Position numbers: made by a program. This document shows, piece by piece, positions 47,379-50,300 of a stretch of 64,000 nt of DNA. The first letter of the stretch is position 1, and the number at the start of each line of letters is the position of its first letter. The stretch is from Escherichia coli. GTDB taxonomy: Bacteria > Pseudomonadota > Gammaproteobacteria > Enterobacterales > Enterobacteriaceae. The stretch lies in the NCBI RefSeq assembly GCF_044324875.1, contig NZ_CP172185.1, one strand, 5' to 3'.

Positions 47379-50300
47379 TAACCGGATTGCACCACCAGAT
47401 GAGCACGCCGCCAGTGCCGGTGGCCTTGCCGTTGGCATTTTGGGGGCACTGAAAGCCGCAGGTGGACTGTGGTTTGGCTGGAGTGGCGAAACAGGGAATG
47501 AGGATCAGCCGCTAAAAAAGGTGAAAAAGGGTAACATTACGTGGGCCTCTTTTAACCTCAGCGAACAGGACCTTGACGAATACTACAACCAATTCTCCAA
47601 TGCCGTTCTCTGGCCTGCTTTTCATTATCGCCTCGATCTGGTGCAATTTCAGCGTCCTGCCTGGGACGGCTATCTACGCGTAAATGCGTTGCTGGCAGAT
47701 AAATTACTGCCGCTGTTGCAAGACGATGACATTATCTGGATCCACGATTACCACCTGTTGCCCTTTGCGCATGAATTACGCAAACGTGGGGTGAATAATC
47801 GCATTGGTTTCTTTTTGCATATTCCTTTCCCGACACCGGAAATCTTCAACGCGCTGCCGACATATGACACCTTGCTTGAACAGCTTTGTGATTATGATTT
47901 GCTGGGTTTCCAGACAGAAAACGATCGTCTGGCGTTCCTGGATTGCCTTTCTAACCTGACCCGCGTCACGACGCGTAGCGCAAAAAGCCATACGGCGTGG
48001 GGCAAAGCGTTTCGAACGGAAGTTTACCCGATCGGCATTGAACCGAAAGAAATAGCGAAACAGGCTGCCGGACCACTGCCGCCAAAACTGGCGCAACTTA
48101 AAGCGGAATTGAAAAACGTACAAAATATCTTTTCTGTCGAACGGCTGGATTATTCCAAAGGTTTGCCGGAGCGTTTTCTCGCCTATGAAGCGTTGCTGGA
48201 AAAATATCCGCAGCATCATGGTAAAATTCGTTATACCCAGATTGCACCAACGTCGCGTGGTGATGTGCAAGCCTATCAGGATATTCGTCATCAGCTCGAA
48301 AATGAAGCCGGACGAATTAATGGTAAATATGGGCAATTAGGCTGGACGCCGCTTTATTATTTGAATCAGCATTTTGACCGTAAATTACTGATGAAAATAT
48401 TCCGCTACTCTGACGTGGGATTAGTGACGCCACTGCGTGACGGGATGAACCTGGTAGCAAAAGAGTATGTTGCCGCTCAGGACCCAGCCAACCCGGGCGT
48501 TCTTGTTCTTTCGCAATTTGCGGGAGCGGCAAACGAGTTAACGTCGGCGTTAATTGTTAACCCCTATGATCGTGACGAAGTTGCAGCTGCGCTGGATCGT
48601 GCATTGACTATGTCGCTGGCGGAACGTATTTCCCGTCATGCAGAAATGCTGGACGTTATCGTGAAAAACGATATTAACCACTGGCAGGAGTGCTTCATTA
48701 GCGACCTAAAGCAGATAGTTCCGCGAAGCGCGGAAAGCCAGCAGCGCGATAAAGTTGCTACCTTTCCTAAGCTTGCGTAAGTGCGGTTAATCTCCCGTAA
48801 GTGGAACTAACAGCACATCGACCTCACTTGAGGCAATCACTCTTTTCGCCGAGCAGGATGCTCGCGAAAAGAAACTGTGATTGTGATTACCGCAAATCAC
48901 CAAATCGAAATGATATTTGCGACAAACTTCCAGAATATGTTCGCTTAACTCACCGTAGGCAATAAACGTCTTGTCAACGGGATACCCCGCATCCTGAATT
49001 AACTTATCAAGAAAGCTTTGCGTTTCTTCCTGCATCACGCTGCGTAAATCTTCAAGCATCGGCGCAGCTAATTGATTGTACATTTCCGGGTCGGAAGCGA
49101 GAGTAATTAAACTGATGTGTCCCTTTACTGGCCTGGCGATAGATACCGCTTTTGCCAGCAGTTGCTGACTTTCCGGTGTAACCGCAACAGCGACAAGAAT
49201 ATTGCTATAGCTCATAACCTGTTCCTTATTCTGTGAACTTCAGGTGACATTAAAGCTTTACTCCTAATGGAGAAACGACGCAATCCCAACTCAGTCAAAC
49301 AGGTAAATATTAGTCTGATTATTAGTAAAGACAATTAATCAATCACTCTCGGTGATCATATGATTTCAACTGTAATTATAAGAAAATAATGTACTGATTC
49401 TCTATATTAAACAAGTGGTTAATATATGTAAAACATTTTATTAACATTAAGTTGATTGTTGCCTTTCTTTGTATTTAATTAGTTTGTTGTGCGGTAAGTG
49501 TCTGTTTAAAAATAGCTTATCTGGTATTGCATGAAAGTGATTATTTATAGCAGATGATTATTTACGGTGAGTTATTTTAACTGTGCGCAACATCCCATTT
49601 CGATTATTCCTGTTTCATTTTTGCTTGCTAGCGTTGCGAAAAACTTTTTAACAGATTGAAATACACCCAAAACAAAAGTATGACTTATACATTTATGTTA
49701 AGTAATTGAGTGTTTTGTGTGATCTGCATCACACATTATTGAAAATCGCAGCCCCCCTCCGTTGTATGTGCGTGTAGTGACGAGTACAGTTGCGTCGATT
49801 TAGGAAAAATCTTAGATAAGTGTAAAGAGCCCCTTCTATTCGTGAGGACTTATTAAATCCAAAAAAGGGGCTCTGCCTGTTGCAGCTTATCGCAACTATT
49901 CTAATGCTAATTATTTTTTACCGGGGCTTCCCGGCGACATCACGGGGTGCGGTGAGACCGCATAAAAATAAAGTTGGTTATTCTGGGTGGGAATAATGCA
50001 TACCTCCGAGTTGCTGAAACACATTTATGACATCAACTTGTCATATTTACTACTTGCACAGCGTCTGATTGTTCAGGACAAAGCGTCCGCAATGTTTCGT
50101 CTCGGCATAAATGAAGAAATGGCGACAACGTTAGCGGCACTGACTCTTCCGCAAATGGTTAAGCTGGCAGAAACCAATCAACTGGTTTGTCACTTTCGTT
50201 TTGACAGCCACCAGACGATTACTCAGTTGACGCAAGATTCCCGCGTTGACGATCTCCAGCAAATTCATACCGGCATCATGCTCTCAACACGCTTGCTGAA

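Follow-up and report, generated by a model that had tools for sequence, protein, structure and literature searches.

The upstream region of flhDC in this Escherichia coli strain carries no insertion sequence (IS) and no remnant of one. We are highly confident that positions 49216-49995 of the window, by which we mean the whole 64,000-nt stretch of DNA that was analysed (contig NZ_CP172185.1), are the control region of the flagellar master operon flhDC in its native, unbroken form, shared with the divergent gene uspC; no observation speaks against this reading. An IS-free flhDC control region is the ordinary state of a very well-studied region; it is the ancestral and overwhelmingly common state of the species and not a distinguishing feature.

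Gene context and composition of the control region

The spacer lies between two divergent genes, with otsA beyond uspC and flhC beyond flhD, and the ORF calls in the window place motA and then motB downstream of flhC:

47347-48780, plus strand: otsA, from an ORF call
48787-49215, minus strand: uspC, 142 aa, divergent from flhD, from an ORF and the NCBIfam UspC equivalog
49216-49995: uspC-flhD intergenic region, 780 bp, 35.3% GC, unbroken, from ORF bounds, composition and alignments
49996-50346, plus strand: flhD, intact, 116 aa, ATG at 49996, from an ORF and the NCBIfam FlhD equivalog
50349-50927, plus strand: flhC, intact, 192 aa, from an ORF and the NCBIfam FlhC equivalog

All three equivalog matches score well over the curated NCBIfam cutoffs (UspC, 280.7 bits against a cutoff of 167; FlhD, 155 bits; FlhC, 285 bits). 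The arrangement of uspC on the minus strand and flhD on the plus strand, then flhC and motAB, is that of the native spacer, and the uspC-flhDC gene order is the same in strains 042, W3110 and O158:H23.

The preliminary description of this DNA put about 780 bp between uspC and flhD and called the region long and AT-rich, and the measurements agree with it on both counts. The distance from the start codon of uspC to that of flhD is exactly 780 bp. In the closest complete genome, the 49 kb surrounding this locus hold 52 intergenic gaps (median 52 bp), among which 780 bp ranks second in length; the sole longer gap in those 49 kb is that between ftnB and araF, at 795 bp. The GC content of the spacer compares with 50.0% for the whole window; it is about 2.8 standard deviations under the mean for windows of 780 bp and ranks among the lowest 2%. 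No 500-bp stretch of the 64 kb is lower in GC than the core of the spacer (49247-49746, 29.6%). The ftnB-araF spacer (about 42044-42788 of the window; the 795 bp refers to the closest genome) is another long, very AT-rich intergenic region, within which 42166-42365, at 24.5% GC, has the joint lowest 200-bp value in the window.

No insertion sequence at the sites occupied in K-12

IS insertions in this region had been named at the outset as a known route to hypermotility in laboratory E. coli, and for K-12 the literature agrees: IS1, IS3 or IS5 between about -96 and -476 activates flhDC in poorly motile K-12 stocks (PMC5100188, PMC11237407, PMC5493358), and the IS-less state in K-12 goes with poor motility (PMC5493358, PMC5100188). 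Positions attributed to Barker 2004, Fahrner & Berg 2015, Soutourina 1999 and Yakhnin 2013 are given as cited in PMC5100188 and PMC7652899, or stand as general background. Transferred to the window, the relevant sites are as follows:

49321-49701: zone equivalent to -476 to -96 of the flhD start site, in which activating K-12 IS1 and IS5 insertions are reported; positions from PMC5100188, carried over by an alignment that is gap-free upstream of the start site
49690-49697: CATTTATG, intact and present as a single copy, the 8 bp of which IS1H insertion produced a duplicate in MG1655; from alignment and a single-occurrence check
49698-49701: TTAA, intact, the IS5 target occupied in W3110, at -99 to -96; from BLAST breakpoints at query positions 483-487, taken from the two main BLAST alignments, and PMC5100188

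The zone falls inside the most AT-rich core of the spacer. It holds no IS with a target-site duplication at about -476 to -96 of the flhD start site, and both K-12 targets are unbroken.

The insertion alleles of K-12 share the backbone of the window and differ from it in what they carry. In MG1655 (NC_000913.3) the spacer measures 1,555 bp, made up of 779 collinear bp, the 768 bp of IS1H and the 8-bp target duplication; the flanking genes are the same, and the 779 bp outside IS1H align with the window at 97.5% in the upstream part and 95.4% across the promoter and leader, whereas IS1H occupies the site equivalent to 49690-49697, where the window is without insertion. The W3110 or MC1000-type allele has the same spacer backbone too, but its spacer is 1,978 bp long, with an IS5 of about 1.2 kb at the TTAA that is unbroken in the window. 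The IS-less K-12 stocks (for example BW25113 and MG1655 CP010441) have the same unbroken architecture in a different lineage allele.

Set against MG1655 without IS1H and W3110 without IS5, the window spacer is collinear: there is one indel relative to K-12, a single base in the leader, and the rest aligns base for base. In nine further strains of various lineages (042, O157:H7, O104:H4, NC101 and others) the spacer measures 778-780 bp, with single-base indels only, so that the 11 aligned strains as a set vary between 778 and 780 bp and every length difference among them is a single-base indel. A spacer of about 780 bp, collinear with IS-less alleles and free of any indel greater than 1 bp in 11 strains, is what a native region presents.

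Direct searches gave the same picture. BLAST at word size 7 returned only chance-level matches to IS1 or IS5 anywhere in the window, the IS5 query being a 578-bp segment of the ~1.2-kb element with the left end GAAGGTGCG...; the spacer has no long terminal inverted repeats, its longest inverted repeats being 10-11 nt; and none of its 10 small ORFs (20-40 aa) matched a Pfam transposase. Among complete E. coli genomes the spacer is single-copy, at a median of one and a maximum of two places per genome; DNA derived from an IS would be multicopy. The lack of IS ends and of transposase coding potential, in single-copy DNA, again fits a native region. The preliminary description had seen no IS terminal repeats or transposase fragments, which the BLAST, inverted-repeat and Pfam searches confirm, and had concluded that the flhDC regulatory architecture appears to be IS-free, which the collinear alignment and the two intact K-12 target sites uphold; the alignment that it proposed, with K-12 sublines bearing IS1 and IS5, revealed no IS remnant and no large indel.

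Interrupted alleles are rare and mostly confined to laboratory lines

The spacer is present in 5,421 of 5,426 complete E. coli genomes, always at the same locus and with 93-99.7% identity, and in none of these 5,421 was any part of it seen to be mobile or missing. A 501-bp query (49300-49800), short enough for even an IS1 to split, was split in 171 of 5,419 genomes, the leader was split in 10 of 5,390, and the full 780-bp query gave 118 split places. The MG1655 IS1H junction was found with a 100-nt probe in 53 genomes, nearly all of them about 4.64 Mb in size and named MG1655 derivatives, and the W3110 IS5 junction with a 60-mer probe in 102 genomes. For the IS1 junction a 60-mer gave 181, a count inflated by partial and joined matches, and the 100-mer was used instead; the IS5 60-mer count was retained, being in line with the 118 split places. 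Approximately 155 of the roughly 175 interrupted genomes have one of these two junctions, MG1655-type IS1 or W3110-type IS5, the junction counts being approximate because nearby pieces were joined and matches at a coverage of at least 80% were counted.

Overall, the region is split in about 3% of the 5,426 complete genomes and uninterrupted in about 97%. The interrupted genomes are mostly laboratory K-12 lines, and interruption outside K-12 amounts to well under 1%. As about 97% of genomes are IS-free, the feature says little about the strain, and its motility cannot be read from the IS-free state. Furthermore, as IS elements inserted upstream of flhDC are seen almost exclusively in laboratory K-12 lines, K-12 is no benchmark for natural isolates in this respect. 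In three non-K-12 genomes (EC19, NCCP12480 and OZ546963), an IS1 end lies no more than a few hundred bp from the flhD promoter, not at the MG1655 site; these would be natural or independent insertions.

Lineage of the allele

The preliminary description framed the region by comparison with K-12 sublines. That frame holds as an alignment test, but the strain is not K-12, its spacer being 95-97.5% identical to that of MG1655, and beyond the alignment the comparison serves as analogy only. Twenty-five positions differ from K-12, of which 13 lie within the last 306 bp of the spacer, so that quantitative behaviour may differ. No complete genome has an exact match to the spacer; the best matches, at 99.7%, are E. 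coli 042 (NC_017626.1) and some 18 genomes like it. Strain 042 has a 780-bp spacer aligned at 100% query coverage, the same gene order and, bar one loop base, the same perfect-stem leader allele, and it differs from the window by two substitutions, at 49403 and 49841. Over the 25 kb that hold the flagellar and chemotaxis block (39001-64000), the best identity is 99.0%, to O158:H23 strain CFIAFB20140388; with no more than 99.0% over 25 kb, the source strain is none of these 042-like genomes, and its lineage is not closely represented among the 5,426 complete genomes.

Predicted promoter and CRP box

We infer the positions of the binding sites, the transcription start site and the antisense RNA AsflhD from homology to K-12. 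The equivalent of the flhD start site is 49797, mapped from the MG1655 AsflhD end at 1978395, 198 nt upstream of the ATG, and it agrees with the placing of TTAA at -99 to -96 in PMC5100188. Two elements can be predicted upstream of it:

49718-49733: predicted CRP box TGTGATCTGCATCACA, of the form TGTGA-N6-TCACA; read from the sequence, with its role taken from the literature
49762-49790, plus strand: predicted flhD promoter hexamers TTGTAT (49762-49767) and TACAGT (49785-49790), separated by a 17-bp spacer and placed by the position of the start site

Nine of the 11 aligned strains have the hexamer stretch unchanged, whereas 28Eco12 and 18KM2445 each depart from it at two positions. A generic promoter scan did not report the flhD promoter, which fits an activator-dependent promoter. 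The same scan returned three promoter-like sites on the minus strand, where 3.6 were expected from shuffled sequence, and because these are not above expectation they are of no help in placing the uspC promoter. A generic terminator scan found no terminators.

Both half-sites of the predicted CRP box match the consensus, and the start site lies about 71.5 bp downstream of its centre. This position and the start-site context are as expected if the promoter is a CRP-dependent class I flagellar promoter, and from the literature CRP would act at the 49718-49733 box of the flhD promoter. MG1655, and K-12 more widely, differs in having TCACG in the box as well as a weaker predicted leader hairpin. 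A 41-mer around the consensus box was found in 4,510 genomes (4,223 at 99% identity or more), whereas the TCACG allele occurs in 415, mostly laboratory K-12 derivatives. On this sequence comparison, it is K-12 that has the atypical form of the box, not the strain in the window. In K-12, flhD transcription needs cAMP-CRP and is modulated by H-NS, LrhA, OmpR and RcsAB, and by analogy the upstream AT-rich DNA here would be the site at which H-NS, LrhA, OmpR, Fur, IHF, MatA, YjjQ and RcsAB act (PMC5493358).

The flhD leader

Downstream of the start site lies the most polymorphic part of the spacer, with an identity to other E. coli of 92.9-99.5%. Its features are:

49797-49995, plus strand: flhD 5' untranslated leader, 199 nt (198 nt in K-12), from start-site mapping
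49815-49891, plus strand: predicted long leader hairpin, +19 to +95, from an inverted repeat and minimum-free-energy folds of 11 alleles
49797-50017, minus strand: predicted equivalent of the AsflhD antisense RNA, by position against MG1655 b4839 (1978176..1978395)

The positions that differ from K-12 are clustered at 49829-49880. In the predicted hairpin, an inverted repeat of 10 bp without mismatch, AGAGCCCCTT (49826-49835) and AAGGGGCTCT (49865-49874), makes up the upper stem. For the first 100 nt of the leader the predicted folding energy is -26.4 kcal/mol, about 10 kcal/mol more stable than the -16.1 of K-12, with values of -16 to -18 across K-12, O157 and O104. This leader allele is found at 99% identity or more in 19 of the 5,426 genomes. 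At two base pairs both partners are altered (G-C/C-G and C-G/A-U) among the 11 closely related E. coli alleles; 114 of 500 shuffles did likewise, which is not significant. The predicted hairpin is thus supported by folding but not proven by covariation.

GGA motifs occur at 49803-49805 and at 49846-49848, the latter in the apical loop of the predicted hairpin. On the motif and the literature, we presume these to be the two CsrA sites. In the literature, two CsrA sites close to the leader's 5' end shield flhDC mRNA from RNase E. AsflhD starts 22 nt inside flhD and is about 220 nt long (PMC9600491); by sequence, the region corresponding to it appears conserved by position. No Rfam family matched within 48500-51200 at E<=1.

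Model and alternative explanations

Based on the K-12 literature and on conservation, we propose the following model for the native control region. A weak sigma-70 promoter, dependent on CRP at the 49718-49733 box, would initiate flhD transcription at about 49797. H-NS, LrhA, OmpR, RcsAB, Fur, IHF, MatA and YjjQ would have their platform in the AT-rich stretch at about 49250-49700, and in K-12 an IS1 or IS5 entering the equivalent of this stretch would relieve repression. CsrA, several small RNAs, RNase E, RNase III and AsflhD would in turn act on the 199-nt leader.

One alternative grants the absence of an IS, yet holds that point changes give this strain an flhDC output other than that of K-12, with the stabilised leader hairpin and the consensus form of the CRP box as candidates, in which case 'IS-free' would not imply the weak-motility state of K-12. 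The TCACA half-site in place of the TCACG of K-12 speaks for it, as do the difference in leader folding energy and the GGA in the hairpin loop. However, the consensus CRP allele is the common form in the species (4,510 genomes against 415) and K-12 the unusual one, the hairpin allele is a lineage polymorphism common to 042 and about 19 genomes, and the covariation test on 11 alleles was not significant. We therefore consider this possible but somewhat unlikely. The narrower proposal that the perfect-stem leader allele, whose 10-bp helix is rich in G+C, could change the action of CsrA, RNase E or RNase III on flhDC mRNA is more doubtful still; if it were true, the motility set-point of the lineage of the window and 042 would differ with no IS insertion involved.

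It is highly improbable that the AT-rich spacer is horizontally acquired DNA instead of native regulatory DNA: a core GC content of 29.6% does resemble that of acquired islands, but the spacer sits at the same locus in nearly all complete genomes (5,421 of 5,426, at 93-99.7% identity), the flanking gene order is conserved and the spacer holds no mobility genes. That a decayed piece of an IS, a solo terminal repeat or, by comparison with wild-type E. coli, a large indel is concealed in the spacer is refuted by the alignments and has a negligible chance of being correct, given the base-for-base match to IS-less K-12 with one 1-bp indel, the 778-780 bp in 11 strains, the single-copy state of the region, the absence of IS1 and IS5 similarity and small ORFs without a transposase domain.

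For the annotator, the native, uninterrupted region means that the flhDC operon and its control region are both intact and keep the ancestral arrangement. Since they are, motility should be under normal multi-input control, neither locked on by an IS nor knocked out. The population count of interrupted genomes may serve as context.

An ISEcp1-blaCTX-M-1 unit elsewhere in the window

A chromosomal ISEcp1-blaCTX-M-1 transposition unit of 3,003 bp lies at 13291-16293, 33.7 kb from the flhD promoter, and contains two coding regions:

13477-14739: IS1380-family transposase, 420 aa
15027-15902: CTX-M beta-lactamase, 291 aa

A downstream WbuC-family gene is annotated in the matched plasmid records of the unit, to which copies on E. 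coli plasmids of about 110 kb are 100% identical. The unit is inserted beside the fliE / DUF5503 region and flanked by 5-bp direct repeats (TCTAT) at 13286-13290 and 16294-16298, and one complete genome only has an ISEcp1 unit at a similar place.
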